Source: Octopus vulgaris
Lineage: Eukaryota
Direction: 5' to 3'
Length of the DNA: 64,000 nucleotides
Assembly: GCA_951406725.2 (NCBI GenBank)
Contig: OX597827.1
Location: 80,414,001 to 80,478,000 of the forward strand
The notes beneath the pieces were generated by a model. That model ran no database searches, had not been told where the DNA came from, and saw only the letters and a program-made list of their open reading frames with translations. The translations under genes were made by a program, and so were the position numbers. Of this stretch, positions 1 through 64,000 are shown one piece after another. Numbering within the stretch: position 1 is the first letter of the stretch; each line of letters starts with the position of its first letter.

Positions 1-512
1 TTTGATTTTAATTTATATTGTATTAAGGAATTTTGAAATCCTACATCTTTGTCTATGGCATTCGGTATTGATACTTGAGAACCTTTACGATCATTTTCAC
101 CAAACTGTATATTCACATTCTTTATAGGAAACTCCGGTTCGTGGTCATTGATATCTTCTATTACAATTTTGACTTTTAATATTTTTGTGAAGCTATCCAT
201 TTTCTTAATAATAACTTTCACAGTTCTGGAACATTCTTTGTTGAATGTGCAGAGATCTTCTGCATCCAGTGTCTGAGCAGTGTACAGTTTACCTGTTTTG
301 GTGATGTTAAATAACTGTGCCACCTTTCGTTTGAATTGACTGAATGTTATCAAATGTTGGTCAGATGGTTTAACATTGTCTAAAAGTTTAGAATCGGCAG
401 CAATGTCTGCTACATATGTTCCTGGACTTCTCTCTTCTTCCACATGGTAAGTAAGGTCTATGGTCAGGACACAGTGGACCATTGATAATACAATGGACAA
501 TGACAGGAACAT
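1..512 (-). CDS. PCDH: Protocadherin P1, 5' part of large exon (signal peptide, EC1, start of EC2); runs off the window edge
   Basis: ATG at 512 in CAACATG context reads MFLSLSIVLSMVHCVLTIDLTYHVEEERSPGTYVADI...DINDHEPEFPIKNVNIQFGENDRKGSQVSIPNAIDKD, matching the six full paralogs. Splice acceptor (ctgttttag) at 569-570. Confidence 0.95.
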   Translation of the reverse strand, partial: MFLSLSIVLSMVHCVLTIDLTYHVEEERSPGTYVADIAADSKLLDNVKPSDQHLITFSQFKRKVAQLFNITKTGKLYTAQTLDAEDLCTFNKECSRTVKVIIKKMDSFTKILKVKIVIEDINDHEPEFPIKNVNIQFGENDRKGSQVSIPNAIDKDVGFQNSLIQYKLKS

Positions 513-1165
513 GTTGCTGTTGTATGTTCGTATTGGTTAAAGATGTCCAAATGTGTTGAGGAATGAACCTAAAACAGAACAACAGTTTCCTCAATTACAA
601 TTATTGCATAATACTTATAACTTAATAAAATATATGGTAACTTATTTTGTTTACAACTTTACTCAAGAAGAAAGTGCAAATAAGCTGGAGTAAGGGCTAC
701 TGGGTACAGTTAATATGGTTAGTGTTCAGTGACTGTGAGAAATTTAGTTGGAATAGAATCCTAGAAGATTCTAAAGACATGCAATAATGTGGAGTAAACT
801 TTCTATGTGTTAAACCTGTCACAAGAGAGAAAACACTTGTAACAGGTTTAACAGGAGTAATGAGAGAAAGCAGAGGTTGATAAAATGCGTAAGTTTTGCT
901 GGATGCGATAGAAGGTCAAAATACTCAGAGCAGTAGAGGTTATTGTAGAGCTGATTGAATACACATAATAAGTAAATAGTGTAATCGTAGTTATGTGTTG
1001 GTTGGTTCCAGTCTAGAATGTGTGTGTGTGGATGGAGGGAGGGAGAACAGTGTTGTCCTCTGATGTTTTAAATGTGTAACAGTGAGACAAAAATCTATCT
1101 GGTTTAGAGAAGCAAAGTTTGAGATAATCTTGATCATGTGTTGTTCATGACTAAAATAGGGTTAA

Positions 1166-1385
1166 CCCTTTTGTTACCATATTTCTGTTGAGATGCTCTG
1201 GGTTTCTTTCAATTACTTTAAATATAACAAAGAATTTAGTAAAATAAATTAGTTATCCTTAAGCTAGTGTTAGGAACATAAATTGTTACTAGGGTTTGGT
1301 GGAAGATTTCAATTTAAAACTTATGAAAACAAGACATTTGTACACAGAGCCAGAACTGGTTTCAGTCAGGTTAGTAACGAAAGGG
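1166..1385. mobile_element. piggyBac-type MITE, family A
   Basis: TTAA|CCCTTT...AAAGGG|TTAA termini. A second copy is at 54370-54582. Confidence 0.8.
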
Positions 1386-1636
1386 TTAATATGTGATCTA
1401 ACAGGTTGGTTGTGATTTAATTTAATAGCTATAGGTCAGTCTTCCAGAGGATACTGTTAGACATGCTTGATGATGTCAAAGTGCAAAGTGAACATTGTTT
1501 CCACTGGGATTCTCAAGGCATCCTTTGTGTATTACACAAGTTTTCAACAGATCTGCTTTGCTTAACTCATGTTGATATGTAGTCTTGGTCAGCTCTGATC
1601 AAACTAACCCATGGTCTACTAGGAGTGAGTCACTGA

Positions 1637-1800
1637 CATTAGCATAGCTAGTGGGAGCGGTAGAGGTGGTCTGCCCTGGGTAACACTTTTAAAGAGGCAG
1701 CACTTTTGGGTCTGCTGTAGGTAATACATGTTTTTTGTGGGTTTGGGGGCAGCGAACAGAAGGGCTGCCCTGGGCAACACACACACTAGTTATGCAAGTG
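1637..1800. mobile_element. Short degenerate TIR element (MITE)
   Basis: Ends resemble cattagcatagctag...ctagttatgcaagtg. A related copy lies in reverse orientation at ~47056-47199. Confidence 0.5.
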
Positions 1801-1974
1801 GCCAAAGACCATGTGCTTAGGGCTAGTGCTTTCCAAGGCAGGACATGAATTACTTCAGAATGGAACAAAAGGAAGCAACGAGTGAATAAGACATGCAATA
1901 AAGTTTTAATTAAAATTTCTTTTGCCTGCCTGCCTACTTGTCTATCCATCCATCTATCTATCTATAATAGGTAC

Positions 1975-2380
1975 AGCCATGGCTGGGTGGTAAGAAGTCT
2001 GCTTCCCATTCATATGGTTCTAGGTTGGACAAGTTTTTTCTATTAGAGCCCTGGGTTGATGAAAGTATTGTGAGCAGATTTGGTTGATGGAAACTGAAAG
2101 AAGGCTGTCATATACACACATATATGTATATGTATATGTGTATGAATTTGTATTTCCTTGTCTTGACATCGTGTCACAGCTGTAAATGAATGTCGCTGTT
2201 ATAAAGCAGTGTCAATCATTTCCAATATTCTGTGAAAACATGTCTGGCCATGAGGAAGTATTACTTTGCTTGGGAACAGATGAGGCTTGGTGACAGGGCA
2301 TCTAGCTCTAGAAAATCTGCTTCAATTAACCCCTTTTGACCCATGCAAGCATGGAAAAGAGGATGCTATGATGATGATGA
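1975..2380 (+). mobile_element. tRNA-derived SINE remnant with (ATG)n tail
   Basis: A-box-like ggctgggtggtaagaag. The body ggacaag...gatttggttgatggaaactgaaagaag is shared with the copy at ~29970-30090. Tail is ccatgcaagcatggaaa...atgatgatg. Confidence 0.6.
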
Positions 2381-4269
2381 TTTGCTATATACCAACTTTT
2401 TCCACTTATGGAAAACTGAAGTGGAGCATGGGAGAAAAAAACATGAGAAACATGGCTCTAGACATACTCCAACACACTTTACTGTTTGCTAATCGAGGAT
2501 CAGTGTTTTATCATGTGGCACACAGTGTGACAGCCTACACAGATAGCAATCTTCCCACTATTTTGTTTGTCTATTCCACAAGGTTAAGGTGGTGGTTGAG
2601 TGGAGTCAGTTGGACGTCCAAGTTATTTTGTTTTTACGAGTTCATCAGAATAGGATAATGGCTACTTTCATAAGGGTGAGTTTGATTCAAGTGGTGCTCA
2701 GTTTGAATAACTGAAGGTTTATGTCTGCAGTTATATGTAGACAGGCAGAACATTCTGAAAGGTTGACGTTCAGATAGGAACCATTGGGCAAAGTATGGTG
2801 AGATATGAGGGAGAATAAGAGAGAAGGGCAGGTCATGTTGATCTGGGTTCAGGGGAACAAAGGTCGTTGTAGTCGTGGTTGGAGGGACAGTACATGTGTG
2901 TGACAATGGCTTGGCAAATCTATTGAATGATTTCAGTTTGGATATGTCAGTTGTACTGCAATGAAGGTAACATCTGAGCTTGCCAGAGAACCAGCAATCA
3001 ATAAAACTGAAGTATTTTCTAGCTTTTACAAGGAAACTATACAATAGGATGATCTGGCTACTATTTCTAATAAAAACATTATCAATACAACATACTTAAG
3101 ATATGTTTGTTGTCATAAGCAGTGGTTTGGACAAAAAAAAACTACAGCTTCTGGTGTTTAAACAACATGTATAAATATGATCTCTTCATAATGTTTTTTT
3201 TTTTTATAGAGCTGATTCTATTATGAAATTCAAATTTATTCTGCTTCTGCTGTCCACTGAAAAGCAGTAAACAGTTTATACACTAAATGTATAAATTTCA
3301 GACTGGTGGATTGGATTTTGTTTCTGATGTGACACATGTGTGCAATATTGATAAGCTGCAGCTATAGCAAACATGCATCTGATGTTTTTGTGGTCAGGTC
3401 TGGTGTGATCTTGTTTATCCCAGCTCTGAAGTATATTGAATCTTTTAATATATGCCTTTAAAGTGATTTTTCCCAGACAAAAAAAGAAAAAGCTGCAGTT
3501 GCACATTTAAACAACACATGCATTTAGTATGATACATTGATAATGTTTTTTATTATAGAGGTACTCCTATTGCATAATTCAAATTTATTTCTAATAAGTT
3601 GAGTGATCAAATAGTTATATTGGTAGTGTAGATGTTTGGGTGTTTGGCAATGAATATTTATGTAGAAGTATGAACAATGAGCATCAAGAACAATCTGGAA
3701 AGTTCTACTAAGTTAATATAAAGTTAAACTATTTATTGATAACTCATGAAAATAAGTGTTTTGGAATGATATAAAAAGACTATCAAATGCTAAAAATACA
3801 TCTTTTCTATCTTACCCAATAGTATGATATTTAATATAATTTGTACATCATATTATGTAATTTTGTTAGAAAAAAAAAATAACTGTTTGCTGAAAATCAC
3901 TCAAATGATCTATAAAATATCAATATATGAAATATAATTTCTAAGATTTTAAATACATCTTTTAGACAGATCCAGTATCAATACCAAAAGGCAATCTGTA
4001 TATCCAACTCAATGTGGATAGTTTGTTAGAATGGTGAATGCTGCCTTATTTGCCTTGAGAGGGCCTCTCATGGATGCACGGTGCATAGGATCACACATTT
4101 ATATTATTGGCAGACAAGGACTGGCTGCTATGAGTGCTGGAACTGCCAGATCAAGTGATTTCGATGTATCTTGACTACTCAGTGGCAGATGCTTGCTAGC
4201 TGCATCCCAGCCAGATCCCTGATATATAGAAATTTCTGTCACTATTAATTATTTTTTAATAAGCTTCTT

Positions 4270-4737
4270 GGCCATTTACAACATCAGTGCCTGATTCTCA
4301 TCTACCAATAATATAAATATGCATGTTTTTGCGAGCTATGCGTCTAAGTGAGAGGCCCTCTCAAGGAGAGTGGTGTGGTTTCCAGTGTTTTAGCAAAAGC
4401 ATCCACATCATGTTGGATATGTACACACACACACACACAAAACATTGCACACAACCCATTGCCGTAAGCTCGCTGAAGCAGGCTCAACGTCTCTGCAGCA
4501 CACTTCCTAAGTTTAACACAAAATTTCTCATTGATTCTTCCTGTCCATGACAAAATCACAGACTACAACATACATGCGATCACAAAAACACAAATTTCAC
4601 AACTTGCAAAGTAAACACATTGGTGTCACTCAGCACACTGCCTCATGAAGGTCACTCTCACTGCACATGCAGCTGTGTGCTGCCATCTGTTGGTGTACTA
4701 CAGAACTAGTCCAGGACATTTTTGATACCATTCTTGA
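4270..4737 (-). mobile_element. Mariner DNA transposon remnant (left TIR plus N-terminal HTH of transposase)
   Basis: ORF 4344..4559 gives RINEKFCVKLRKCAAETLSLLQRAYG, resembling the mariner N-terminus (QRxxIKFCVKLGKSAxET...AYG). TIR-like tggtatcaaaaatgtcctggactag at ~4707-4731. Confidence 0.75.
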
Positions 4738-4859
4738 TTTATATATAAACTAATTTTACCATAACACATGGAAATCTAACTCATTAAATACATATACTGT
4801 CTTAGAAAATTACTATTTGTAAATCTCACGACGTGAGATATTCAGCAACAGTACTTTGG

Positions 4860-5146
4860 AGTAAAGATTGTTTGCCAACATAACATGGCAGTCCTGGTTT
4901 AGGATGAATGTTGCTGTAATTTTAGCCCCAGGAGACATCGTCTCCAGCTGACTATACGACATGATCTATGTCCTTATATTTTCGAAGAAGGGAATCTAGC
5001 ACCACCACTCAGCTCAAAACAATATCTGTGTATATGACAATATCTGTTGTATAGCCAGCTGGAGACGATATCTCCTGGGGATAAAATTACAGCAACATTT
5101 GTCCTAAACCAGGACTGCCATGTTATGTTGGCAAACAATCTTTACT
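4860..5146. mobile_element. Foldback/MITE with ~97-bp inverted arms
   Basis: agtaaagattgtttgccaacataacatggcagtcctggtttagga...ccagctgactatac is mirrored by gtatagccagctgg...tcctaaaccaggactgccatgttatgttggcaaacaatctttact. Confidence 0.8.
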
Positions 5147-6363
5147 ACTTATATTGTCATTTACAAATTTTAGTCTTCACTTTTACAAAAATTATTTTGA
5201 ATTATCTGATTAGTTTCTCATCTTTCTGATTTCTTTAATACAGCTTAAAATGATTGGACATTTGTAATGAATAATGTTTATGATATTGTTAGCAAACTGA
5301 CAAATACTCTGTATTCTTTAGCATTAGGATCTTCCAGAACTCTGATATGTAACCATTTTTTTTCATTTCATTAATGTGCAACAACGCATCTAACTTCATA
5401 TTACTTAATATACCATAGTTGGCATTGTGGAATAACTTTCACATTACCACACACATATTGAGAAAAATAAATGATTTATGTAATTTCAAAAAGAATTATT
5501 CAAAAAACATAAAATGGTATTCTTTAATCAATGAGGCCTGATATTAGGCTAAAAGAAACATAACAACATATTCTTCAATCAGTCTTCCATCAAACACTCA
5601 AATAAAACAAATAATCTTCATAGGAATAATCAATGATGTTTGTATTTTAAATATATTTTAGTGAAATCTACTTCAGTTTAATTGAAAATATATCTTTTCC
5701 AAAAATCAAATGTGTAAATTCTTGGATAAAGGCGACATATCAGACAGGCAAAAGTGACAGCCTGGAACGGTTAGTGAATTATTGAAGTGAATAGAAATAA
5801 CTAGTGACCCAGCTTATTTGTGAATGACACAACCGACAGAAAACAACGAAACATTAGAATATAGAGCTATACAATTTATAATAGAATTTGAATTTGCATT
5901 TTTATTTCTCTTTTGTAATGAAGTTGGAAATATGATGGGAACATTGGCATAGAATGTATTGCATAGGAAAAGAAAATAATTATATGAAATAAGTACATTA
6001 AATTAAAAACTAGTCAAGTAGGATTCTAAAACATATCCTGTACTGATATTTTGATAAATAATATATAACATTATTCTTCCTGAAATAATTAATCTTTGAC
6101 AGAAGAAGTATTCAATATTCTCATGATAATACATGTTATAGGAATTTTAAAATAAAATTAACAAATGGAAATAATACTGCTCAGGAAATAACAGAAAATG
6201 AGGCAGGTAAGATTTAAAATTTAGACTGAATAAAGATGAAATTTTCAAGGAAATGCTATTTGATTTAGTGCATAGTAAGAGAAAAATGACTTATTAAAAT
6301 ATAAACATATATTAGTATAATTTGTAAAGAAATACATCATGGTAAAATCATATATAAAAGGCA

Positions 6364-6893
6364 CCTCCATTCTTGACAGTTAAGAAGGGATTCTAATAAG
6401 CGTGCTGCCAGTAACTCTAAGCAAGATATAAAACACACCATTATTTCATTACTGCTAAAACTCTTCACATTACAAAAGGATTTAGACAAAATCTTCTTTC
6501 AAAAATTGAATATAAACACGTGAAGATATCTTTCACATGCCATCTGCTATTGTGGTAAGATATTAGATCTTAGTTAAATCAAAAACAAATAGACACAATA
6601 ACACTATATTGTGGAGAGTGTTGTCTCTGATTACTGATCAATATGCATAACGAATTGATACGACTAGTCTTGTTTTAATGGATACAGTCTAAATATTAAG
6701 CTCTTTAATCAACATAATCCAATTAATTTTAATTAAAACAATATGAAAAATATTAGTGAAAAATAAGACTGAATTATTCTTCAGTGTTTTTATTCCCTTA
6801 TTACTATTTAAATATATTAAAAACAATATATTACAGATTAAGTGAGATTTATAACATAAAATGAGATTATAAAAGATTTAAATAGAAACTTAC
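6364..6893. repeat. Intron-1 segment nearly identical to 19335-19864
   Basis: tccattcttgacagttaagaagggattctaat through gaaacttac matches over ~530 bp with few substitutions. Confidence 0.9.
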
Positions 6894-7066
6894 CTTTTTA
6901 ATAATTATATCATTGGTTATTCAGTGAGAAAGAGAAAGATGTATTGTTGTAGAAAGATCCATTGTAAGTGCTGCTGTAATGGTGTGACAATGGCTGTTAT
7001 GGTGATGGAGTAGTGTAGCACGTCAGGCAGAGAGTCTGCTGCTAGGAGAGGGTTGCATGTGTCACT
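6894..7066 (-). other. Predicted non-coding first exon (leader) of P1
   Basis: One of seven near-identical 173-nt blocks. Starts at an Inr-like TTCAGTG and ends at donor AAAG|GTAAGT. The 5' end is inferred. Confidence 0.8.
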
Positions 7067-7270
7067 GAAGTTGTATGTTTTGTGAGAGTACATCTGTCTG
7101 ATAATAACATTCTGCTGAGCTGTTGTCAATAACTATTTACATATATGAAGATATATACTTATAATATAGTTGCAATATTCTATAGTTAAACATAATTGTT
7201 TTGTTTAATAATACTAGTAGTGTAAATGCTTAGCTTTGTTAGTGATTACTTTCTATGTTTTAGTGAGAAT

Positions 7271-7865: not shown

Positions 7866-7942
7866 TTACACTTGTTTCACTGGTGTTTCTTCACTAGAAT
7901 CTTTTGATGCAGATGTCCCATTGTTTTTATAAATATTTTGGT
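7866..7942 (-). CDS. PCDH: Protocadherin P2 terminal coding exon (exon 4)
   Basis: Acceptor ttctaaattccag. The phase-1 join with exon 3 gives DQNIYKNNGTSASKDSSEETPVKQV-TAA. The same 77-nt block occurs in all six complete units. Confidence 0.85.
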
Positions 7943-8269
7943 CTGGAATTTAGAAACAAAATACAAAATTATGATGGTGATTCTTTTATTATCGATGAAG
8001 TAAACAATATGAAAAGCAATGTATTCACAAATTTGAGAGTTTGTTAGCACACATACGTACACACACATAAGTGTGTGTGTGTGTATGCATGACATGGAGA
8101 CTGTTTCTTTTGCTTACTTATCTGTATCACTTGGACTAGTCTCCATCTGTTCGCATGAATTTATCTCTATCACCATTTTACATAACCTCATCCTTCTCAC
8201 TGTTTCCCCATATAACCACACATAAACATGAATGTCAACAAGCTGAGACTGATTTTTGAATACCTGTGC

Positions 8270-9740
8270 TTACATTGCAATTGTATGCGTGTTTACAAAT
8301 CCTGTCATTCTTGTGTGACTTCTGTTTGCATTTGAGCTTTAGAGAGGAATATAATAGAATGAAATTAACTAGGAATTCAATCATTAATAATTGTCATAAC
8401 GACATTAGTGACAAAGACAAGACAGTCGACAGTTTTGAATTGTTATGTATGAATAATTTAGAGGAGGATGCTTTGAACTATTCTGAGAGTTTTAAATCCT
8501 TTGCGATTCAAAGCCTGATACGACAAATGCGACATATTTTTCATATGTCAATAAAGAAGTTTATTCAGTTATGAAACTCAAAGAATTTCCAAGTTCTGAC
8601 TTTTGTGGGAAATTCTTCATTTTAGAGCAAAAAACATTCCTAGTTGTGAAATATTGCAATTGATATAAAGATCTTCACTGAGCAATGAACTCACAAATTT
8701 CTGAGCCAACCAGTGTTTTATCAACACTGTGGGTCATTGAAAACAGTTCCATTAAAGAAAACTTCATGGACACGATTAAGGTTTGGATCTTGGTAACTCC
8801 TGAGTGGATATAACTGAACAAACTTAAGTTCAGAAATGTTGTTTATCACAAGTGTCAAAAACGGGTCACATTGCCAAGGCTTGTCGTTCTATATATTCAA
8901 GTAATTCAACAATAGTAATTGTCATTTATTATTATCTTTAGTGTTGCATAATTCATCATACATGCAACAATCTCACATATCATTATAGACACCAACATGT
9001 CACAGGTCACTGACTGCTTTTGATTGGTCTGTCTGTCTCTTTCTTCATTTTTAAATTAAATTCTAATTGAAAATTAGCTTTCGGAACATTTTAAGTCACT
9101 CAAAATGGATTATCAATTTTGTGTCTCAAAAATATGATAGTTTCAAACAAGTCCTTACTTCTTAGTTTTAAGGTATGCTCGTAATCAGAGCTAGTCACTG
9201 ATCTCATAGTTCCAAAAAAAAGGTAGGATGTATATTCCTAAAATATATTCCTATATAAAGGTAGGATATATTCCTAAACTTGTAGTTACAGCTGGTCAAT
9301 CTTTTGCAAAAACCAAACATTCAATCACTTAGTATAGCAAGAAATCATAACACCTATTGAATCTTTGAAATGAATGACTGCTATTGTCATGATTTTCAAA
9401 AAGGGAGCATTATTCTGGGAGTCTGTGGTGGTTTCCATACAACACTGAATTGGCACATGCTTCAAAGTAGTTGCTACTGAGAAGCTAGAGGATATTGTAC
9501 ATTGAATTAATCATAATTCCATATACATCTCAAAGAACATTCTTTCCCAAAATCCAATTCATTAAGCACTATCAACAATGCTGTCCAGATTATTTCAGTA
9601 TAATCTTCTGCATTATCTATTTCTCTGGAAATATTCAATTTAGCATTGTCTTCTTTTGTGGCAAATAACCTGGTGCAGTTGCTCACCAATACACTACAGT
9701 TATTTATGCAATTGATAAGCCAACTCATAATATTCAACCA
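8270..9740 (-). mobile_element. Possible highly decayed hAT-like transposase remnant in P2 intron 3
   Basis: Non-repetitive, protein-like broken frames with only weak hAT-like patches (e.g. ACANSVL, which recalls PCxxHSLNL). Boundaries are uncertain. Confidence 0.3.
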
Positions 9741-10439
9741 TGAAGGAGAATCTGCTAGATTTATTGAAGAGGATTAGCCGACAGAAGTACTTATTCTTCC
9801 TTGTAAATGATAATGATCTTAGCTGTGACATTATTCTGAAACTTAAAGCAACCAACATGACCGAGATACAAGAAACCAGTGATAAATCCTGTCATCTTCA
9901 TCATAGTGATCAGATAAAATTTCAAGTCAAACTAAAAACTTCAAATATTCAAAATGAAATGCTTGTTTATTGTAAATTGCACAATTTTTCAATGCAGCTT
10001 GCATCAGGAAATCTGTAAATTGTATCTAAAACTGATGAAACATTTATTACTCCAACTAACATGACTACTAGTGATTCCTGTACTTTAAATCAAGAAGAAA
10101 AACTAGATTCATTTATTCCAAGACTCTCTCAGTGATTCTTGAGTAGATGAAAGCAATTCCATAAGAATAAACAAAATAAAACAGAAAATCCAGATTATCT
10201 GCTGAGTTCAAATATTCACATCATTTAAATGAATATCCATCCGTTCCCATTACCTTATGTACCAGTGTATCATGTAATCACAGATTTCTTACTTCTTGCA
10301 TGTGTCAACTCCAATGAATTCATGCCTCTTTAGGCCCAGTCTACATTGGAATGATTGTGCTAATACTACAATTGTACATATAACAAATTCTTTTATTTGA
10401 GTGTTACAATTCTATATTTAAGAGATGAGGAATTGTGTA

Positions 10440-10754
10440 CATTATTTACATTTGACAGATATTTGTCCTCATCTTGTTTGTTGTTAACACAACATTTCAG
10501 CTGCTATACCCTTCTGCCTTCATCAGGTGTCTTGGGGAAATTTCGAACCCGGGTTCTCATTCCTAAGGTATTTTTCGATGTTATTACTATTATTATTATT
10601 CAGGTCACTGCCTGGAATTGAACTTGGAATCTTGGAGTTAGTAGCCCCATGCTCTTAACCACTATGCCATATCCTCGTGGGCTGGAGGATATATCAGCCA
10701 AAATGTGTTAACAACAAATAAGATGAGGACAAATATTTTCAAATGTAAATAATG
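10440..10754. mobile_element. Penelope-like element remnant: inverted terminal segments, hammerhead-like motif and tRNA-like module
   Basis: Inverted arms of ~52 bp or more (cattatttacatttga...tcaaatgtaaataatg). The interior matches 55185-55372, which adjoins a Penelope endonuclease tail. Confidence 0.7.
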
Positions 10755-11029
10755 GAGTGTTACAGTTCAAATGTTGTAGAAATGCATTTACTACAAATCA
10801 ATACTCATACTTAGGTCTGTCATGAAGTCTGGGACTCATAAGATTGGAGCTTAATTCAATTTTTACATTAAAAATATTCATTACAATGCAAACACACATA
10901 TTTAAATTTAAGAATAGCAGAAAACAGGCCATCAATATTTAATTGAAAGTTTAACGTCTCTCTTCTTGATATAAATATCTGTTACATCGAAGAGATATTA
11001 AAGGAAATATAGCAATTACATTTACTAAC

Positions 11030-11183
11030 CTGACACTCCTGGTATTTCTTCGTAATGTTTCAAGTCTCCTTGTCTACCACTTCTCTTGGATGACATTGTA
11101 TCTGATGTATAGTTACAAACCATAGTAGCATTATCTTCCACAGCATCATCACTTGATGTCACCACAACAGGTTGACAGTATTT
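11030..11183 (-). CDS. PCDH: Protocadherin P2 exon 3 (cytoplasmic, 154 nt)
   Basis: Acceptor tttgtcaacag|AAATAC and donor TCAG|GTTAGT. Encodes KYCQPVVV...LKHYEEIPGVS, in frame with the exon 2 donor. Confidence 0.88.
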
Positions 11184-11354
11184 CTGTTGACAAACAAACG
11201 ATAAAGAAATGTGAGAAGACACCAAACAATGGAAGTTACAATCAACATGGAGAGAGAACAATTTAATATTGGAATGTATTATGGAAGTTAAAACATATTC
11301 AAAGAGATTTCATTGTTCACTTTTACAGAGAGAAAATGTAATGTTTCCACTTAC

Positions 11355-18465: not shown

Positions 18466-18467
<2 letters not shown>

Positions 18468-18508: not shown

Positions 18509-18511
<3 letters not shown>

Positions 18512-49863: not shown

Positions 49864-49940
49864 TTATACATGTTTCACTGGTGTTTCTTCACTGGAATCT
49901 TTTGATGTGGAATTATCATTGTTTTTATAAATATTTTGAT
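49864..49940 (-). CDS. PCDH: Protocadherin P6 terminal coding exon
   Basis: aattccag| then DQNIYKNNDNSTSKDSSEETPVKHV-TAA. Confidence 0.85.
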
Positions 49941-50374: not shown

Positions 50375-50528
50375 CTGAAACTCCAGGTATTTCTTCGTAA
50401 TGTTTCAAGTCTCCTTGTCTACCACTTCTCTTGGATGACATTGTATCTGATGTATAGTTACAAACCATAGTAGCATTATCTTCCACAGCATCATCACTTG
50501 ATGTCACCACAACAGGTTGACAGTATTT
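50375..50528 (-). CDS. PCDH: Protocadherin P6 exon 3
   Basis: 154-nt exon; donor G|GTTAAT. Confidence 0.88.
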
Positions 50529-50699
50529 CTGTTGACAAACAAACGATAAAGAAATGTGAGAAGACACCAAACAATGGAAGTTACAATCAACATGGAAAGA
50601 GAACAATTTAATATTGGAATGTATTATTGAAGTTAAAATATATTCAAAGAGATTTCATTGTTCACTTTTACTGAGAGAAAATGTAATGTTTCCACTTAC

Positions 50700-53075: not shown

Positions 53076-54259
53076 GTTGAATTGTTGGTCCAATGTGAAG
53101 ATTTCCAGATATGCAGATGATTGAGTCTGAAAAAAGAAATACAACTTTAATATTTTCATTATTTGAGCTGATATGATTCAGAATTGCACAATAATAATAG
53201 ATTTGAATGGAGAAAAAGAAAAACAATGGCTAAAATTCTGAATTTAGTAACCGAAAGCAGAAATGCGATCATATATTCAAAAGAAATACATGCTACACTA
53301 CTAAAGAAACTGAGTAATTACATATGAGGATATGTATTTAATCTGGTTATTGTAAAATATACTAAGTTACTGGCTGAAAAAAATAGTTCTGTATCAAATT
53401 CATCAGTTTATATAGCGTCAAGATTGTACAACATGTAATCAGATTGTATATGATCCACGAGGATGACAGCTCACATAGGATCTAACTGCATATTATTTGA
53501 TTCTGATGACACAGAAGCATGTCTTTCAGCTATGACTTCTATTATCTTTTTTTGCCTTAACATAATTTACGAATAACAAATTAAAAAATTTTTTTAAATG
53601 TCAACTTAAATATTGATCTGAACAGATTACCTTTCATGACAGGATGGGTCAAAATGATGATGGCAATTAGTAGAAATAATCGTTGATAATTTACATCTTC
53701 TTGTTCATAAATCAATTTATTTCCATACATGCAACTTTAATGTCTAGTTCTTTTTCACTGTCTTCCATTCAGAGTCACAATGCACAACCAACATGGAATT
53801 TACTTCTTTCTCACCAACTCAGGTCATCAACATTTATTACCCAACACTCATAATCATACAGCATTACACATATTTTGTACAATCTCTTTGTTGTCAATCT
53901 GTAGTGAGACATGTCAGCACTATTTTGTTGTGGTGACATAACACAGTCGTGCTACACTCAAAACATTCAATCACTGCTGGCCGTGGAAGGATACACGTGA
54001 CTAAGTGGTGAAGTGTGAGTTTCGAAAGGCAAAACCCAGTTCCTGAGAAGACATAGAGATCTAAACACATCAGTTGTTTGTTCTGACAACAAAACATTGC
54101 TGAATTAATGCTGATCAGAAAACAGCATTCATACAACTATAGGATCTATACCCTTACCTCACAACCACTAGAGAAACTCATTGGAAATTTAGATTTGCAG
54201 CCAAATACCAGTTCTAACTATCTTGATGTTTATTAAGAAATTAACTCATGTCTCACTAC

Positions 54260-55160
54260 ATGAGACCCAAGAAGACATGGGATGAAGTGGTGAGGACCGA
54301 TCTCAGGATGTTGGGCCCTACGAAGGAGATGACAATGGACTGAGATGTCTGGTGATAGGAGGTTCTTAACCCTTTTGTTCCCATATTTCCATTGAGATGC
54401 TCTGTGTTTCTTTCAATTACTTTCAAATATAACAAACAATTTAGTAAAATAATTTAGTTATCATTAAGCTAGTGTTAAGAACATAAATTGTGACTAAGGT
54501 TTGGTGGAAGATTTTTATTCAAAACCTATGAAAACAAGATATTTGTACAACAGAGCCAGAGCTGGTTTTGGTAATCAAAGGGTTAAGAAAACTTACCCAC
54601 ATCAGCAAAACTGCGTTCTAGAAGCACAATATGTTCCAACCACATGTAATAAAACTTTCCACACACCCTACCCCTTCATACACTAGGCTTATCTCTCACT
54701 CTCCAATCCTGTCCTCATGGCTCTGCTCCCTGTATCATTGCTATCCCACTGTCCCCTACCCCATCTATATACCCAGGTTTTCACCAGTCACTGCACCACG
54801 CTTGGCCCTTATGCTTCTTTGGTAATACCCTGCTACTTATATTATGACCTCCATACCTTGAGGGTACTTGCCACCACCTGCCTCTCTCTTCCTTTACCCA
54901 TTTATATTCTGATCCCTGTTTCCTTGTGAGTATGTGCCAGCACTTCACCACCGTCTCTCTCTCTTGTGCTCTTGCTGTCTCCCGTACTCTCTCTCTCCCT
55001 TTTTGTCTTGCTCTTCCCTCAGGCTGGATAGCCAGGTACCTCCTCCACAGCAGCACACCTGTTTCTTTCCTCATTCCTGATCACTCTCTCTCTCTCTCTG
55101 GCTGGGTAACCATGTACCTCCTCTACAACAAGACACTTTTGTTTCTGACTCTTTGACTCT
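54260..55160 (+). mobile_element. RTE-like LINE 3' end and pyrimidine-rich tail, interrupted by a piggyBac MITE
   Basis: RPKKTWDEVVRTDLRMLG at ~54262-54318. A CT-rich tract resumes after the MITE. Confidence 0.55.
54370..54582. mobile_element. piggyBac-type MITE, family A, second copy
   Basis: TTAA|CCCTTT...AAAGGG|TTAA; homologous to 1166-1385. Confidence 0.8.
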
Positions 55161-55184
55161 CCATCACACTGGAACCTTTCATCA

Positions 55185-55570
55185 ACAATGTTTCGGCTGA
55201 TATACCCTCCAGCCTTCATCAGGTATCTTGGGGGAAATTTCAAACCTGGTTTCTCATTACTAAGGTACTTTTCGATGTTATTATTATTATTATTCAGGTC
55301 ACTGCCTGGAATTGAACTCAGAATCTTGGGGTTAGTAGCCCGCGCTCTTAACCACTACACCATATGCCCGTGGGCAATTATGGAGTGAATTTTAGGGCTT
55401 ACTTATCTAATATTTTTCTATCCTTCCTTAATACCGGTTCCCATATGCTATTCATATCTGCACTTGGTCTGCTTAGGAGGTTGCTGTGTCCTAGCATATG
55501 TGCTGCTTCTTTTAGTTTTCGTATTTCCCACTGGTGTTCTCTGTCTATTCCTTTAACTTCATCCCACAGG
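55185..55570 (-). mobile_element. Penelope-like retroelement 3' end (endonuclease tail, tRNA-like module, hammerhead motif)
   Basis: Minus strand encodes LWDEVKGIDREHQWEIRKLKEAAHMLGHSNLLSRPSADMNSIWEPVLRK, resembling the PLE GIY-YIG C-terminus. Downstream lies CTGATGA-A-GGCTG...CAGCC-GAAA. Confidence 0.8.
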
Positions 55571-57190
55571 GAATTTGTTCATAAAAATAGTCACACAACA
55601 ATTTCTTTCAGATATTAGCAGTTATAATTGCTAGCAGGACAAATTTACAGAAAATGTATGTTATAAAGAAAGTTCATATTAACCTGTTTTTATTTTATTG
55701 ACTTTTATGGGATTTGTAAAGAAATGTAATTAAATGTAACAACACATCGTATTTGGCCTTTCCCCATTTCTGATGTCTATCACTTAATAATGATTAATAA
55801 GATATATATCACCAACAAACCACCTGCAAGTCATAGGTAACTGGTCAATGCTTTATATATGATTCAGGAAAATTGCAGTACTGCTGGGGTTAACCTAATT
55901 TTTGGCTTACTTAGGGTAGATGAAATAAATGATGTTTTAATACGTACATAAAAAGAAACTAATTCATACGGATTTGTTGAAAATCTTAATCCCCATATCC
56001 AAAATAGTATACAATGAAATCAAAATGTTTCGGATAGAAACATGAGATGATGTAAGTACAAATCAACGAAACATCTCTGACAATCTGGAAACGTCTGGAT
56101 ACATGAACATTAGAAATCTTTTTCACAACTGACCGATAGAACAACAACACATCCAAACACTCATAGACACACCAAGAACAGTTTATTCGGTTTTGTACTG
56201 AACTTATATAACTTGTCCAGAAAATATGGGAAAAATTATGTTTGCAATAAATAAAAATTTAAAACAAAACAAACACCAGGTGGCCCCAAAATATTAGTCA
56301 ATATTGAATAGAACATTAAAAAAAGAAAAGACTGCTTGATATAATCTAATCACAATACATTTATATTTTGATGAAATATGCATTTTAAGGTATTAGTTAG
56401 GCAAGGTATAATGTCATATCATAAAATCTTGACATATTTATAAACACATGCATGGATAAGTGAAAATATGTGTCATATGTAAAGGATGAAGATCAGGATA
56501 AATTTCCTTTCAAAACGTACTTCACAGATGTTGTGAAATTATCAGATACTTTTAACAAAAGTTAAAAAATTTCATTTCTAATTGAGTATGAAAATATTTT
56601 TTAATTATTACAACTCAAAACAGAGCTGGTACTTAACAGAAGGATATGAAATTCTTTTCCCACATTCTGTTATTTCTATTCACTTTCTGATAGCTATGAA
56701 ACATCAGCCATTATCCTTAGCCCAAGATTGTAACAAACCTTTGCCTCATAATTGCTTACAATCTACCATGCTATAAACAGGTTTAAAGATATTGTAGCAT
56801 CATTCTGCACATTTTGTATCATACAAGTTAAGATACCTTCTGTATAGCATCGACTATATACTTACAATATTATATCTTCCTTACAACAAAAGCAGCCCAA
56901 CATTATAATATTACATTATAGACTTTTTGTTACTGATCAATATATAAATCAAATATTACAAAGACATGAATAATGCTGTTTCTATGGAATAAATGCAAAA
57001 TATTAAAAATTTTAACCAATAATATTCAATTAATTTTTTTAAAAAAGCCATATGAACACTATTGAAAAATTATAAATGAATTATTGTTCAATCTCTTTGT
57101 TCTATTCTTTGTATTCAATGTCCAAATAGATTTAATATTAAGGAGTAATTATATCAAATGAGATTATAAAAAGATTAAATAGAAACTTAC

Positions 57191-57363
57191 CTTTTTAATA
57201 ATTATATCATTGGTTATTCAGTGAGAAAGAGAAAGATGTATTGTTGTAGAAAGATCCATTGTAAGTGCTGCTGTAATGGTGTGACAATGGCTGTTATGGT
57301 GATGGAGTAGTGTAGCACGTCAGGCAGAGAGTCTGCTGCTAGGAGAGGGTTGCATGTGTCACT
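57191..57363 (-). other. Predicted non-coding first exon of P6
   Basis: Consensus leader copy. Confidence 0.8.
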
Positions 57364-57595
57364 GAAGTTGTACGTTTTGTAACAGTACGTCCACCTAATA
57401 ATAGTCTGCATGTATTTACCCTTAAAGATGGTGTCTGTTTGCTATTGTCAATGACTATTTACATACACGTACAGATATAGATACATTTTTATATAACTGC
57501 AATAGTCAATTGCTCAACATAATTATTTGGTTTAATAACATTAATAATGGGACTGCTTCTCTTTTTTAGTAATTTCTTTCTGTGCTAATGAGAAT

Positions 57596-58266: not shown

Positions 58267-58343
58267 TTATACATGTTTCACTGGTGTTTCTTCACTGGAA
58301 TCTTTTGATGTAGAATTATCATTGTTTTTATAAATATTTTGAT
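58267..58343 (-). CDS. PCDH: Protocadherin P7 terminal coding exon
   Basis: Acceptor ttctgtttctcag| (different intron context, same position), then DQNIYKNNDNSTSKDSSEETPVKHV-TAA. Confidence 0.85.
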
Positions 58344-58727
58344 CTGAGAAACAGAAAATAAATAAATAAAATTTACAAAATCATGGAAGTGAACATCAAT
58401 TTCTACGATATTAACCCCACCCTTGCCATCAGAACAGTATATATCAAAAGGTCCATCTCTGGAAAGAGGCATTTTGTCAGATATATGGAATCAGAGAGAT
58501 AACATTTTGTCAAATTCTTTTGGATTGTATAAAAGGGAAGATACGAACATGTTGCTAGAACAAATAACTATAAAGAGTTCTTGAAATAACAAGAGGATAC
58601 ATTTTTGTATATACGAAAACTAATAACCAAATATTGGATAGTATTATAGACTTTTAAATATAGTTGTCAATAAATGTTTAAATTTTAGACAATTTCAGGG
58701 CAAAATATAGCAATTGCATTTACTAAC

Positions 58728-58881
58728 CTGACACTCCTGGTATTTCTTCATAATGTTTCAAGTCTCCGTGTCTACCACTTCTCTTGGATGACATTGTATC
58801 TGATGTATAGTTACAAACCATAGTAGCATTATCTTCCACAGCATCATCACTTGATGTCACCACAACAGGTTGACAGTATTT
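58728..58881 (-). CDS. PCDH: Protocadherin P7 exon 3
   Basis: 154-nt exon; donor G|GTTAGT. Confidence 0.88.
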
Positions 58882-59052
58882 CTGTTGACAAACAAACGAG
58901 AAAGAAATGTGAGAAGACACCAAACAATGGAAGTTACAATCAACATGGAAAGAGAACAATTTAATATTGGAATGTATTATTGAAGTTAAAACATATTCAA
59001 ATAGATTTCATTGTTCACTTTTACAGAGAGAAAATGAAATATTTTCACTTAC

Positions 59053-61428
59053 TGGGGTAGGTTTTGGTAAAGTTCTCGACTGAACCGAAGATTCATATTT
59101 GTTCTGTAGCTGACCTTCTGCATAACATTCACTCTTGGATCTCTCAGAATAGATATTCCGCTTCACCATCTCTTCTGCATTCCTCGACATAGCAACAGAA
59201 GTGTTAGTCTGGTACAACAATTGTTTCATCTCTGCTCTACCTTGGTAGGCTGTATTCTTTGTGGCAGCAGCTGTGTTATCTCTGTGTTTAATACATTTCA
59301 TAATACACAGCGTTATAGAAACAACAATAGCCACTGATATTATTACTGCTGATGATACAATGATAATAACCCATGTCATATGGACCCGACCTGAAGATTG
59401 TAAAGGTCCACTCTTCGACATTGGTGATGTCTCGTTACTAACAGCCAATACCAAAGTGACACTAGTTGTTGACGACTGAACTGGACTACCACTGTCCTTC
59501 ACAACAAACACCAGCTCATAACTTCCAGCATCATTTAGATAAACTTGTCTGGAGAAGGATAAAGCACCACTGTGTGAGTTCATACTAAACAACTGTTTAT
59601 CATTTCCTTGTATGATTGCATATCTGAGGAAAGCATTGTTTCCACTGTCCCCATCAGAGGCTCTCAAAACTGTGATGTCACTCTTACTCTGCGGATGGTA
59701 CTGCACATTTAGCGTGTAAGGGTCACTACTAGGATATGTAAAATACGGAGCATTGTCATTTTGATCTAGAATCTCAACAATAACATTCGCTGTGTCATTC
59801 AGAGATGGGCTTCCATTATCTTTGACAAAAACCTCAAACTTATACACATCTTGTTTCTCTCTGTCCAATGACATGGTCGCTGAAATGAAGCCATAACTGG
59901 TGATGAGAAATGGGAGATTGGATTTTTCTTTACGCAGCAGAGAATATGTGAGTTGTCCAGCAGATCCAAGATCAGGGTCAGTGGCATTGACAAAACCAAT
60001 AGGGAAGTCTTTGTCTTTGTTTTCGTAGGTGAGGAATTGGAATGTATCTTTGGTAAACTGTGGTTGTACATCGTTGATGTCAGTCACTTGGATAGAGAGG
60101 CTTTTAACACTTTTAAGAGGAGGTAATCCTTTATCTTGACAGGAAACAGGAATGTTATAGTGTCCTTGTGTTTCTCTGTCCACTGGTTTGTTTAGAATGA
60201 TTTTATATTCTTTAGATCCCATTGACTGTAGTTTGAATGTATCATGTTTGATATCACAGCTGACCTCTCCATTTTGTCCCACATCATTGTCAGTGACCAT
60301 CACATAAGCAATGAAACTACCGACTTTGATGTTTTCAGAAATGGTAGCTGTGTTGTGATTCTGTGTAGAAACATAATCTATATCAATAGATGGAGGATTG
60401 TTGTGTTGGTTGATGACATTTATCAGAACAGTTGCTATGGAACTGAGAGGAGGGCTGCCTTCATCCCTGGCCTCTACAAATAATTCATAGGTTTTCTTTT
60501 TCCCTAAGTTTGAATATTCCCTTAAGAAAATGCTTCCACTGGTTTCATTTAACTGAAAATAGCTTTTTGCCAAATCTGATGTCTTTGGACTGAAATGGAA
60601 AGTAATTTTACCATTTTCACCAGAATCAGCATCTGTTACAGATAAAACAATGATGGGTTTAGATTTGTGATGTGTACTTTGTATAGACATATTGTATAGA
60701 GGTTTAGAAAATACAGGTGGGTTGTCATTAACATCTATTATGGAAATATTTATGTTTAAAATACCTTGTTTTGCTGGCGAACCTCCATCTTTAGCTATGA
60801 CCTGTAATAAATATGTATCTTTGATTTCTCTGTCTAATGATTCTTTCAAAACTATTTTAAGAGAAGAAATTCCATCAGCTCTTTTAGCCACTGACAGAGA
60901 GAATGGTTCTCCATTCTTTGATTTTAATTTATATTGTATTAATGAGTTTTGAAATCCTACATCCTTGTCTATGGCATTTGGTAACGATTTTTTTGAACCT
61001 TTTGAAATATCCTCTGCAAGCTGCATATTGATTTTAATCTTAGGAAATTTTGGTTCATGGTCATTGATGTCTTCTATTACTATTTTGATTTTTAATATCT
61101 TTGAAACACTGGTTCCTTTATTGACAACAACCTTCATAGTTCTGGAACATTCTTTGTTGAATGTGCAGAGATCTTCTGCATCCAGTGTCTGAGCAGTGTA
61201 CAGTTTACCTGTTTTGGTGATGTTAAATAACTGTGCCACCTTTCGTTTGAATTGACTGAATGTTATCAAATGTTGGTCAGATGGTTTAACATTGTCTAAA
61301 AGTTTAGAATCGGCAGCAATGTCTGCTACATAGGTTCCTGGACTTCTCTCTTCTTCCACATGGTAGGTAAGGTCTATGGTCAGCACACAGTGGACCACTA
61401 ATAATACTACAGAAAATGGCAGTAACAT
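59053..61428 (-). CDS. PCDH: Protocadherin P7 large exon
   Basis: 806-aa ORF with six EC repeats and TM. Donor at 59052; acceptor at 61480-61481. Confidence 0.97.
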
Positions 61429-63680
61429 GTTGTTGTGTTGGAACCAGATAAAGGTGTCCAGGACTGTTGAAGAATAAACCTAAAACAGAAATATACTTTC
61501 TTAAATTGTTATTATCAGACAAGTAAATATATTTATAGATTTGGGAACAAAAACTGCACCAGGCCAGCAGTCTAAAATATAATAATATCTGAATTACTAA
61601 GTTGGTATTAGGTAACTTTATTGAAGAATTAGTAATACTCATGCCATTCCCATAATATGAAAAAAATCTCTTACTCAGAAAAACTACAAGAATGTTGTTC
61701 AATATAATGTCTAGCTAATATTGAAATTTGATATGTGAAACACAATTACTTTTCTTGTACACTCCCTAAATTTATATACTGAAACACCAAACAATAGTTA
61801 AAAAAATCCCTCAGGTTTGGTCAAGAAAAAATATAGCTAATGAAATCTCTCTGACTCAGTCAAAAGTTTTCCCCTAAAATGAAATATACAATGAACTTGA
61901 CAAACTTATATTTCTTTCTATATTCATTAATCTGATATATGTATTCTCTAGAGACACGTCTACTGGAATCATTCTGCTTTCCATCACATATCAGGGGTCA
62001 TCTTCTTTGAAAATTTCTGTGTTAGCAAAGTAGTGACTCTTGACAGAGGCAAGAGACTTAGGCATGGGAACTCATTGGAAAAAGAGGCCATGCAAGGACT
62101 GCACTCATTTATGACAACTTGCATTGGAGGATGTGAACCTCAGGGTAAGGTTTTCTCTTTGTAAGAAAGAAAGAATCTTATGTTTTCTCCTATGCATATA
62201 TATAAAAAGAACTGCTGTATGTATAACACTCTCAATGTTCTGGTACATTAAAATAACTCCCTATAATTACGAGTGTGAAGTTTTGTTCTGAAACTAATTG
62301 TGTTATTGGTGATTATATTTAAAAGATAAAGAAGTAATTAACGTATAATTAAAACCAGGTCTAAATAGAAGTAATAATCATGAAAATAAAATCACAATAA
62401 AAGCCCATATCTAAAGAAATGAATTCAGAAATAAACTATAAAATTTAATATAGTTTCATGTAATTAAAAGTATGCTTGCAATAGCTTTCTTAAACATAAG
62501 TATTTATCCTTGTTTCTCAGAAATAGGATTGCCAACTAATAAAGATTAGAAAATGACATGTATTGACTAATATTGAAGATTAAAGATCTTATGACAAATA
62601 AAAGACTAATGTGTTATAGATTAAGTAAATTTTGATGACTACAGATTATAAAAAGTTGCAGTTTATGCAAATTATATAAAAACATGTTTATACATAGAAC
62701 ATTATGATCTAAATAGAAACGTTACAATGGGTCATAGAATACAATAATAAAAAAAAAGCACCAAGTCCTTCCGTAATAACTAAGCAAAATTAGAAATTTC
62801 CAACTCGTCAGATTGCCTTATAATGATGAAAATCCTCCTAAAGACAGATTGCTTTCAATATGATCTATTAAATTGGTATTGAAAATACACTTGATGTTTA
62901 ACTTCTGTAAAATATTGGCTTTAAATGTTCACATAATCTAACAGAATTTCACTATTGGAAATATTTGACAAAAAATATATATAACTGAAATTTTAGACAG
63001 AAATTACACAAATAATTAAATCACACACATACAAAAAAATTAAGTTTAAAAACATTAAAAATTACTATGATTTACACATAAATATATTTTAAGGAAACAT
63101 ATACAAAGATATTGCTAGCATTCTGCCTTTTCTACACAAAACTAGTCCTTGTCTTTTCTACAAGCCACCATTTCTATTCACTAATTTCCTTTGCTATTGA
63201 TCATTATTCCACATTAAAAATCTGTAACACAATGTTACTGCATCAATGCTATGAATCCACAAATTATAAAACAGATTTAAAAAGACTATAGTATATTTCT
63301 TCATATACTATATCAAACAACTTTTTGTAACTTTCCATAAATACAGACACAAAATTTCATCTTCTGAACAAAAACACTGCTACACTACGTTATACAGACA
63401 GCTGCCTACTGTTATTAGTCTGTTCATGCATCAAATATTATACAGCCATGGACGTTAGTGTTTCAACTGAATAAAGTTGAAATATGAAATACTTTTATCA
63501 ACGTCATCCAATTAATTATGGCATAAAAAAATATGAACAACACTACCATAAAATATGAGTGTATTATATTAATTCTTTTATTCTCTTGTCAACATCAAAT
63601 ATGTTAGAACAATATTGTTTCAAGTTCAGTGAGATTTATTGCATCAAATGAGGTTATAAAAAAATTAACTAGAAACTTAC

Positions 63681-63853
63681 CTTTTTGATAATTATATCAT
63701 TGGTTATTCAGTGAGAAAGAGAAAGATGTATTGTTGTAGAAAGATCCATTGTAAGTGCTGCTGTAATGGTGTGACAATGGCTGTTATGGTGATGGAGTAG
63801 TGTAGCACGTCAGGCAGAGAGTCTGCTGCTAGGAGAGGGTTGCATGTGTCACT
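63681..63853 (-). other. Predicted non-coding first exon of P7
   Basis: Leader copy with one substitution; donor AAAG|GTAAGT. Its CCAAT pair would fall just beyond the window end. Confidence 0.8.
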
Positions 63854-64000
63854 GAAGTTGTATGTTTTGTGGGAGTACGTCCATCTAATAATATTCTGTG
63901 CATGTATTTATCCTCAAAGATGATGTTTGTTTACTGTTATTCACACACACACACACATCTATATTCAAAGAGCTTCAATATTCAATAGTTAAACATAACT

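Follow-up and report, generated by a model that had tools for sequence, protein, structure and literature searches.

The window, a stretch of 64,000 nucleotides of the Octopus vulgaris genome (contig C14:80414001-80478000, in a genome of 2.8 Gb), carries on its minus strand six complete protocadherin genes, P2 to P7, and the 5' part of a seventh, P1. They belong to an array of 27 core genes at 80.40-80.68 Mb on C14, together with two edge genes and three fragments. The array genes stand head to tail in one orientation on one chromosome, and their nearest named proteins come from Octopus and Argonauta. P1 to P7 correspond to array members g26, g25, g24, g23, g22, g21 and g20, respectively; block statistics were computed over the 27 tandem core genes unless stated otherwise. 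A search of the genome with extracellular cadherin repeats two and three (EC2-3) gave 141 matches, every one on C14. Along each gene, long blocks that are nearly invariant between paralogues enclose a tract that differs in every copy.

The genes share one layout: a promoter with CCAAT-like boxes (in P2 we take these to be CCAAT boxes), a non-coding exon 1, a 2.43-kb exon 2, a 171-nt intron 2, a 154-nt exon 3 and a short exon 4. Exon 2, whose frame is open in all six complete genes, encodes a signal peptide, EC1 to EC6, a transmembrane helix and 82 cytoplasmic residues. Pfam places a Cadherin_2-type EC1 (PF08266) at residues 20-103 and five PF00028 stretches, which is a protocadherin architecture, and a hydrophobic helix at about residues 686-710, visible in the sequence, is the single transmembrane segment. 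The model of P2 is based on splice motifs, an open spliced frame and a tail identical to that of database protein P0001. For P7, intron 2 is skipped in two RNA-like sequencing runs and exon 3 is joined to exon 4 in one, and neither is seen in two DNA runs; the label RNA-like is the software's guess. These contigs show splicing inside one gene unit, and trans-gene splicing is also compatible with them. Full-length exon 3 and exon 4 matches of their own accompany 26 of the 27 core genes (g27 is altered), and one core gene has a cytoplasmic deletion. The exon-2 frame extends 14 codons into intron 2 before a stop (11313-11354, and the same in P3-P7); a short tail through intron-2 retention is possible in P2-P7.

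In P2 coordinates, the mean pairwise DNA difference is 0.006-0.016 from 13643 to 13464, 0.08-0.36 from 13463 to 12624 and 0-0.028 from 12623 to 11064. The constant parts (exon 1, most of EC1, and EC4 to exon 3) are 98-99% identical, with 1% private differences inside the blocks, and the tract of 830 bases is 75-92% alike. The proportion of differing silent sites (pS; pN for amino-acid-changing sites) is 0.05 in codons 18-97, 0.38 in codons 98-125, 0.38 in EC2, 0.45 in EC3, 0.15 in codons 345-373 and 0.02-0.05 in codons 374-792. The bootstrap intervals of EC2 and EC3 do not overlap those of the constant domains, and the profile is unchanged when restricted to 19 intact genes. A preliminary description of this DNA had noted a near-identical EC1, and indeed P2-P7 have zero amino-acid differences in codons 18-97 and only a few variable columns in codons 374-792. 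The constant region of about 1.6 kb that it placed between EC4 and exon 3 measures 1.58 kb (12611-11030), includes the 171-nt intron 2 and stops at the exon-3 splice donor. Its limits for the variable segment, 12615-13440 in P2, were right within a few bases (codons 98-373, 13439-12612), and the segment does differ in every copy, since any two of the 27 genes are separated by at least 10 residues (median 43). Identity "even at silent sites" holds as approximately 95-98% identity and fails as 100%, and a confinement of variability to EC2-EC3 proved too narrow: in an AlphaFold model (mean predicted local distance difference test score, 87) the tract starts at EC1 strand F and finishes after EC4 strand A', so that the EC1 F-G hairpin and the EC4 A strand are included.

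The ratio of amino-acid-changing to silent divergence (dN/dS) is 0.24 in EC2 and 0.14 in EC3. Therefore, the tract is old and not fast: it is old diversity under purifying selection that escapes conversion, rather than an accelerated module. The per-site difference is 0.006 for exon 1, whereas the promoter has 0.28, intron 1 0.30, the signal peptide 0.12 and exon 4 0.14; intron 2 of the other genes is 95-99% identical to that of P2. A shared signalling tail, as had been claimed, exists through exon 3; exon 4 differs, and the non-coding exon 1 is homogenised as well. Third-position GC content is modestly higher in the converted blocks (0.32-0.37) than in the tract (0.20-0.27). The features are collected in the table.

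Table. Genes, blocks and sites in the window (positions in the window; - is the minus strand).
Feature	Position	Strand	Details
P2 (g25)	7866..20044	-	exon 1 20044-19865, exon 2 13785-11355, ATG 13730, exon 3 11183-11030, exon 4 coding 7942-7866; 868 aa
P1 (g26)	1..7073	-	exon 1 7073-6894; exon 2 starts at 568 and leaves the window
P3 (g24), divergent class II EC2-3	20793..28317	-	exon 1 28317-28138, exon 2 24745-22330, exon 3 22158-22005, exon 4 from 20869
P4 (g23)	29123..40181	-	exon 1 40181-40002, exon 2 36004-33572, exon 3 33400-33247, exon 4 29199-29123
P5 (g22)	40982..49057	-	exon 1 49057-48878, exon 2 44442-42011, exon 3 41839-41686, exon 4 41058-40982
P6 (g21)	49864..57370	-	exon 1 57370-57191, exon 2 53126-50700, exon 3 50528-50375, exon 4 49940-49864
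P7 (g20)	58267..63860	-	exon 1 63860-63681, exon 2 61479-59053, exon 3 58881-58728, exon 4 58343-58267
Homogenised EC1 block, codons 18-97 (strands A-E), P2	13440..13679	-	pS 0.05, pN 0.001, 27 genes
Variable tract, codons 98-373 (EC1 F-G hairpin, EC2, EC3, EC4 A/A' strands), P2	12612..13439	-	dN/dS 0.14-0.47; strands from AlphaFold model
Homogenised block, EC4 strand B to EC6, transmembrane helix, exon-2 cytoplasmic part, intron 2, exon 3, P2	11030..12611	-	99% identity within genus
Codon 191 (EC2 strand E, K or N)	13158..13160	-	coupled to codon 328
Codon 328 (EC3 F-G loop, L or F/I)	12747..12749	-	coupled to codon 191
EC1 F-G hairpin, codons 101-114	13389..13430	-	two types, each in both Octopus and Argonauta
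EC4 codons 358-368 (G/A361, Y/D358, D366)	12627..12659	-	coupled to EC1 F-G type
EC3-EC4 linker NQHNN replacing DxNDN, P2	12699..12713	-	alignment of octopod-set proteins
Homogenised non-coding exon 1, P2	19865..20044	-	difference 0.006 vs 0.28 promoter, 0.30 intron 1; covered by RNA-like contigs
17-nt exon-1 motif, P2	19950-19966	-	common to neighbouring array
CCAAT-box region (presumed), P2 promoter	20252..20285	-	one promoter per gene, about 72% alike

Could identical blocks of this length have been made by the assembly? Contigs from four of 24 listed short-read runs were mapped on P7. In a DNA run (X5), single-copy flanks lie at a contig depth of 49-58, and single unitigs reach a depth of 1287 over the constant block (453 nt, no alternative letters), 1101 over EC1, 1160 over intron 2 and 1214 over exon 1. 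The identical blocks therefore collapse at roughly 22-25 times single-copy depth, and the same contrast is seen in run X13.

The pattern recurs in other octopods. Proteins of O. sinensis (10 identifiers, 15 rows; 15 of the 24 members of one cluster are among those listed) repeat the constant and variable parts. The Argonauta hians set comprised 22 identifiers and gave 20 rows; one without the split motif was dropped, one fused record gave one gene, and the edge gene was set aside. Amino-acid identity within the O. vulgaris genome, within Argonauta and between the two is 0.998, 0.994 and 0.920 in EC5, 0.986, 0.991 and 0.871 in EC6, and 0.996, 0.990 and 0.813 in the cytoplasmic part, as compared to 0.80, 0.71 and 0.73 in EC2 and 0.84, 0.73 and 0.75 in EC3. 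The per-domain dN/dS values and trees proposed earlier as a check give a divergence that is not uniform: EC5-cytoplasm sequences group by genus and EC2-3 by class. In a quick tree of the former, 21 of 21 Argonauta rows sit on one branch (Shimodaira-Hasegawa-like approximate likelihood ratio test, 100). The EC2-3 tree of 64 rows splits into two classes (100/100), with both genera in each; there, orthologues of the edge gene are present in all three species (97/79), and ten Argonauta genes form one weakly supported clade (94/64).

From EC4 segment EC4b onward, edge gene g28 has 99-100% identity to P2, and upstream of it 72-83%. The second edge copy, pseudogene g29 (C14:80368956-80371257, locus L003; 10 stops), is 96-99% identical from EC4b and 61-70% in EC1-EC4a. 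This dead copy is homogenised like the live genes, and therefore copying acts on DNA whatever the recipient's protein. Outside the array, 52 of 141 scored EC2-3 matches were retrieved, 51 of them with frames of at least 700 aa. On C14, arrays B (24 genes), C (8), D (6) and E (6) show a profile of the same direction, weaker in C; in array B, pS is 0.00 in EC5 and 0.58 in EC2. Four singleton genes lack a homogenised profile. Seven homologous proteins about 58% like P2 have identities among themselves of 0.70 in EC2 and 0.99-1.00 in EC5-6. The earlier proposal of homogenisation by gene conversion is borne out by the pS of the domains, the Argonauta comparison, the domain trees and the other arrays, and judged from these sequences the array almost certainly undergoes domain-restricted gene conversion, that is, concerted evolution. 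No distance decay of constant-block similarity was detected along the array (rho 0.00). RNA-templated conversion, prompted by blocks that stop at exon edges, is disfavoured, since intron 2 is homogenised and the signal peptide and exon 4 are not.

Some further copies deserve mention. Array B genes L035-L038 and L052 have a pS of 0.61-0.74 in EC1-EC3 yet 0.00 in EC5, the most extreme divergent heads on a constant part. The pair L072/L073 (C14, 81.22 and 81.30 Mb, 77 kb apart) is 99% identical in EC4 only and 73% in EC5; by its sequence this EC4 appears to be a single-domain conversion tract. Internally deleted fragments 99-100% identical to the constant block lie at both array ends (C14:80682043-80682731, 80387531-80388313 and about 80694858-80695112). 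The exon-1/intron-1 regions of P1 and P2 (6234-7305 and 19214-20287) are approximately 88% alike over 1.1 kb, closer than in most of the remaining gene pairs; this points to a recent event between the two neighbours, either a longer conversion or a duplication.

Exon 1 is homogenised in each of two arrays separately; its 46-nt core is 87% alike between the arrays, and their EC1 only 64%. The 17-nt motif within it has 52 matches in the genome, 51 of them inside the two arrays (C14, 79.91-80.68 Mb), and a reversed control has none. On this distribution the motif is a candidate shared regulatory element. The sole match off C14 lies at C10:63177176-63177192, and a 24-nt copy of the exon-1 start is found inside intron 1 of P4 (36693-36716). 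Elsewhere in the introns, 14983-15692 and 30538-31163 are purine-skewed low-complexity stretches with open frames of 130-168 aa, which are probably repeat-derived.

Within the tract, residues of different repeats vary together. The strongest link joins codons 191 and 328, which read K with L or N with F or I in all 27 genes (KL 17, NF 6, NI 4). This rule was discovered in the Octopus array and then confirmed in Argonauta, where it holds in 20 of 20 rows (KL 8, NI 9, NF 3). It is present in both EC2-3 classes and with several codons, and no site in codons 192-324 reaches a squared correlation (r2) of 0.35 with the pair. On the tree each residue changes 15 times, and independent pairs are concordant in 8/8 (p 0.008), these tests being approximate because they used FastTree on recombining sequences. 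In class I, the distances of neighbouring EC2 and EC3 segments are nearly uncorrelated (rho -0.08 to 0.26), and therefore short pieces of the tract have been shuffled.

A second link joins the ends of the tract. The distance of the EC1 F-G segment correlates with that of EC4a (rho 0.45), but with neither EC2 nor EC3 (0.05-0.14), and not with promoter, intron 1 or exon 4. Its type has an r2 of 0.86 with codon 361, the top site outside the hairpin among 352 tested, 0.62 with codon 325 and at most 0.36 across 135 EC2 sites. The K-type occurs with G361 in 11 of 12 genes and the N-type with A361 in 15 of 15; R106 is accompanied by D366 in 4/4 cases in the array and 4/4 in Argonauta, and D366 stands without R106 in two genes of the array and one Argonauta row. 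By eye, the seven homologues mentioned above combine a basic F-G loop with EDIE (3/3) and other loops with EGIK (4/4). When the maximum r2 was permuted in class I, only the domain pairs EC1:EC4 (p 0.0015) and EC2:EC3 (p 0.002) were significant, the other four giving 0.07-0.88.

Vertebrate dimers pair EC1 with EC4 and EC2 with EC3 (PMC5001838, PMC5115871), and in them the loop that follows strand A of EC4 meets the F-G loop of EC1 (PMC5001838). The covariation of EC1:EC4 and EC2:EC3 is the pattern of such an antiparallel dimer and suggests one here, as supporting inference. Of the positions in published interface motifs, 75 of 92 fall inside the tract. In our own residue mapping, made through the gammaB4 alignment, octopus 106 corresponds to gammaB3 84, which has the published pairs 84/338 and 84/320, and octopus 191/328 to gammaB3 163/297, beside the published trans pairs 159-162/302 and 123/300. 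Taken together, we consider it quite probable that the tract contains a selected trans-binding surface.

Several observations weigh against this reading. Two of the 12 distinct rows from O. sinensis break the 191/328 rule, as does the sole O. bimaculoides protein, and in Argonauta the K-type goes with G361 in only 3/7. Two EC1:EC4 links fall short of significance by independent pairs (p 0.06 and 0.125), EC4a similarity follows gene order (rho 0.32), and shared history may contribute to the EC1:EC4 links. Permutation gives the EC2:EC3 maximum of the 14 class I rows from Argonauta a p of 0.63, and the mean r2 is elevated in four domain pairs, which indicates clade structure. Enrichment of diversity in interface motifs is inconsistent, being significant in two of six array sets and not in the family-wide one: p is 0.19 for all 27 genes, 0.006 for class I, 0.89 for Argonauta, 0.014 for B2, 0.13 for B1 and 0.06 for D. 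The pair 163/297 itself is absent from the top rows of published gammaB3 pairs considered. No region-wide positive selection was found (dN/dS is below 0.5 in every domain, so none exceeds 1), and six of the 27 core genes carry frameshifts in the assembly. A complex prediction of the EC1-4 homodimer (score 0.01, mark 0.32) is evidence neither way.

The linker between EC3 and EC4 belongs on the same side. It lacks DxNDN, xE and LDxE: DxND is found there in 0 of 127 aligned octopod-set proteins, where NQHNN-like sequences without the calcium-binding acidic residues take its place, and in 0 of 75 further homologues, including five named cuttlefish proteins. At EC2-EC3 the motif is kept in 127/127 and 75/75, and at EC4-EC5 it is intact in the 127 aligned proteins. 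Among vertebrate rows the EC3-EC4 linker is canonical in seven of eight, the eighth reading DVSDN, and structures of vertebrate clustered protocadherins hold three calcium ions at each junction (PMC5106212). The calcium-free linker of LI-cadherin is flexible and associated with a different dimer (PMC8427231). From the motif loss and this flexibility, a hinge or an altered angle inside the recognition unit of the octopus dimer is therefore inferred by analogy, and the EC1-4 rod need not be rigid and straight as in vertebrates. LI-cadherin EC2-3 and PCDH15 have likewise lost acidic linker residues, and a flexible hinge has been shown in those proteins (PMC8427231); the octopus loss differs in lying at EC3-EC4 and in being family-wide, and its structural effect is a prediction.

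How far does the likeness to vertebrates go? The coleoid protocadherin expansion, and a suggested homogenisation by gene conversion from whole-gene trees, have been published (PMC9068888, PMC6339937), and our array, whose complete multi-exon genes follow one another head to tail on a single chromosome, belongs to that expansion (also PMC9795677); domain-level analysis, residue coupling, a homogenised exon 1 and the EC3-EC4 motif do not appear in the passages of these papers considered. For cephalopods, our literature search found nothing that treats conversion restricted to domains, coupled residues or the EC3-EC4 motif, topics that Albertin 2015, Wang and Ragsdale 2017 and the main supplement of Albertin 2022 may touch. 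According to the literature, octopus and vertebrate clustered protocadherins expanded independently and are non-orthologous (PMC9712504). Both have six EC repeats and tandem genes each with a promoter, both show coupled residues in the domain pairs EC1:EC4 and EC2:EC3, and in both, conversion is strongest in EC1 and EC5-6 and weakest in EC2-3, which it spares here. Mouse alpha-protocadherins, for instance, have identities of 96% in EC1, 69% in EC2, 59% in EC3 and 98% in EC5 (PMC4978886). On the other hand, the vertebrate alpha and gamma genes share constant exons, while each octopus gene has its own exons 3 and 4; homogenisation is more extreme in octopus (99% over 1.6 kb, including an intron); vertebrate clustered proteins have a canonical calcium motif at every junction, and octopus lacks that at EC3-EC4; and, compared with alpha7 and gammaB4, octopus has 3 more residues in the EC1 F-G hairpin and 3-6 more in the EC4 A-A' loop. 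Vertebrate clustered protocadherins bind strictly homophilically in trans and promiscuously in cis, and their promoters are chosen stochastically through a conserved element bound by CTCF; on the octopus side, the sequence shows the conserved exon-1 motif of two arrays. The antiparallel binding mode has been proposed as ancestral to protocadherins (PMC5001838), and therefore the convergence lies in the expansion and conversion pattern, not in the fold. The convergence on a vertebrate design claimed at the outset stands for that pattern, with the mouse alpha profile, and falls for the ancestral fold mode and the missing EC3-EC4 calcium motif.

A fold search with the octopus model returned protocadherin EC1-4 or EC1-6 structures as all of its top 15 (template modelling score 0.59-0.72, about 30% identity). 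The best sequence matches among solved structures, which are also the best fold matches, are delta2-protocadherins (6vg1, E 3e-87, and 6vg4). Delta2-protocadherins are few and scattered, and are not known to be homogenised. As in octopus, the vertebrate delta2 members (Pcdh8, 10, 17, 18 and 19) are complete genes, and theirs is an antiparallel EC1-4 dimer (PMC5115871); they cross-bind within the family (PMC8901172) and, unlike octopus, have a canonical EC3-EC4 linker.

Our preferred explanation, which we hold to be probable, is that conversion keeps the blocks uniform and selection protects the tract as a predicted isoform-specific antiparallel EC1-EC4 surface. DNA-level conversion by unequal pairing would copy between paralogues wherever homology is high, sweeping along the short intron and even a dead edge gene. 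Conversions entering the tract would survive mainly if matched pairs remain (191/328, and EC1 F-G with EC4 358-368); selection would reject those that break interface pairs or erase isoform differences, which would let these differences persist. Identical EC5-EC6 and tail could allow isoforms to share cis partners and signalling, and the 99% identity of EC5-EC6 across isoforms would fit promiscuous cis binding. A stronger form of this explanation is that cephalopods rebuilt the vertebrate neuronal barcode from separate genes, with a self-only antiparallel dimer, a calcium-free EC3-EC4 hinge, expression in random neuronal subsets and self/non-self recognition; conversion would here stand in for shared constant exons, with identical cis and signalling parts and 5' exon. 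We offer this form tentatively. Octopus neurons express about 21 protocadherins each, some of them cell-type specific (PMC9712504), and the adhesion specificity of cephalopod protocadherins was stated as unknown in 2019.

The alternative that survives best, though rather unlikely, dispenses with a strict barcode: affinities would be graded or set at class level, for wiring or cell-type sorting, or the coupled residues would act intrachain or in cis around the EC3-EC4 hinge. Its first half overlaps with our explanation. No more than two EC2-3 classes and two EC1 F-G types have been kept in both genera; delta-protocadherins, which cross-bind heterophilically, work through the same EC1-4 interface (PMC8901172); certain protocadherins of octopus are cell-type markers (PMC9712504); and the flexible LI-cadherin linker with its different dimer (PMC8427231) fits the hinge. 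However, all 27 tracts differ by at least 10 residues, vertebrate beta6 and beta8 discriminate at 92% identity (PMC8901172), and in the AlphaFold model residue 191 lies mid-strand E, 7 residues before LDRE, where an intrachain contact with EC3 would be unlikely.

It is improbable that the tract escaped mechanically, EC2-3 having drifted early under weaker constraint below the conversion threshold, with no recognition code and a role in dosage or expression. Escape is also seen in the promoter, intron 1, the signal peptide and exon 4, which are not binding surfaces, the dN/dS of the tract is below 1, site diversity follows family-wide variability (rho 0.52), and interface enrichment fails in four of six array sets. 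But the shuffled segments of class I show that conversion does enter the tract, and several separately homogenised arrays spare the same tract. Drift would also leave unexplained the point-like 191/328 coupling across 137 codons in two genera, and why EC1:EC4 and EC2:EC3 should be the strongest of the long-range links.

It is very improbable that whole genes duplicated very recently and that EC2-3 then diverged fast by adaptation. A protocadherin burst at 8-14 million years ago (Ma) was inferred from whole-gene distances (PMC9795677), and the ten-gene Argonauta clade indicates that duplication also occurs; yet silent sites of the tract are approximately 10 times more diverged than the blocks, introns 1 and 3 and promoters are diverged too, the EC2-3 classes are older than the Octopus-Argonauta split, and the two domain trees contradict duplication as the main cause. 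An overwriting of paralogues with one consensus by assembly or polishing, named in the preliminary description as a possible refutation and hinted at as local error by the frameshifts, has a negligible chance of being the cause and is ruled out by the unitig depths in separate runs, the private differences inside the blocks, and the recurrence in O. sinensis and in Argonauta, which has its own constant sequence.

Whole-gene distances misdate such arrays: the Jukes-Cantor distance of all exon 2 is 0.069, as compared to 0.183 in the tract and 0.010 in the constant block. Conversion may account for part of the burst published for 8-14 Ma (PMC9795677). Short reads from the constant block are unassignable to a gene, and expression counts need the tract or exon 4. 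Whether the cephalopod protocadherin expansion works as the vertebrate one does has been a question since the first octopus genome, and the sequences described here provide evidence for an invertebrate antiparallel EC1-4 interface. Since the EC3-EC4 calcium motif is missing throughout the family, the structure is predicted to differ from that of vertebrates, and residues 191/328 and 101-114 with 358-368 are swap targets that make specificity directly testable.

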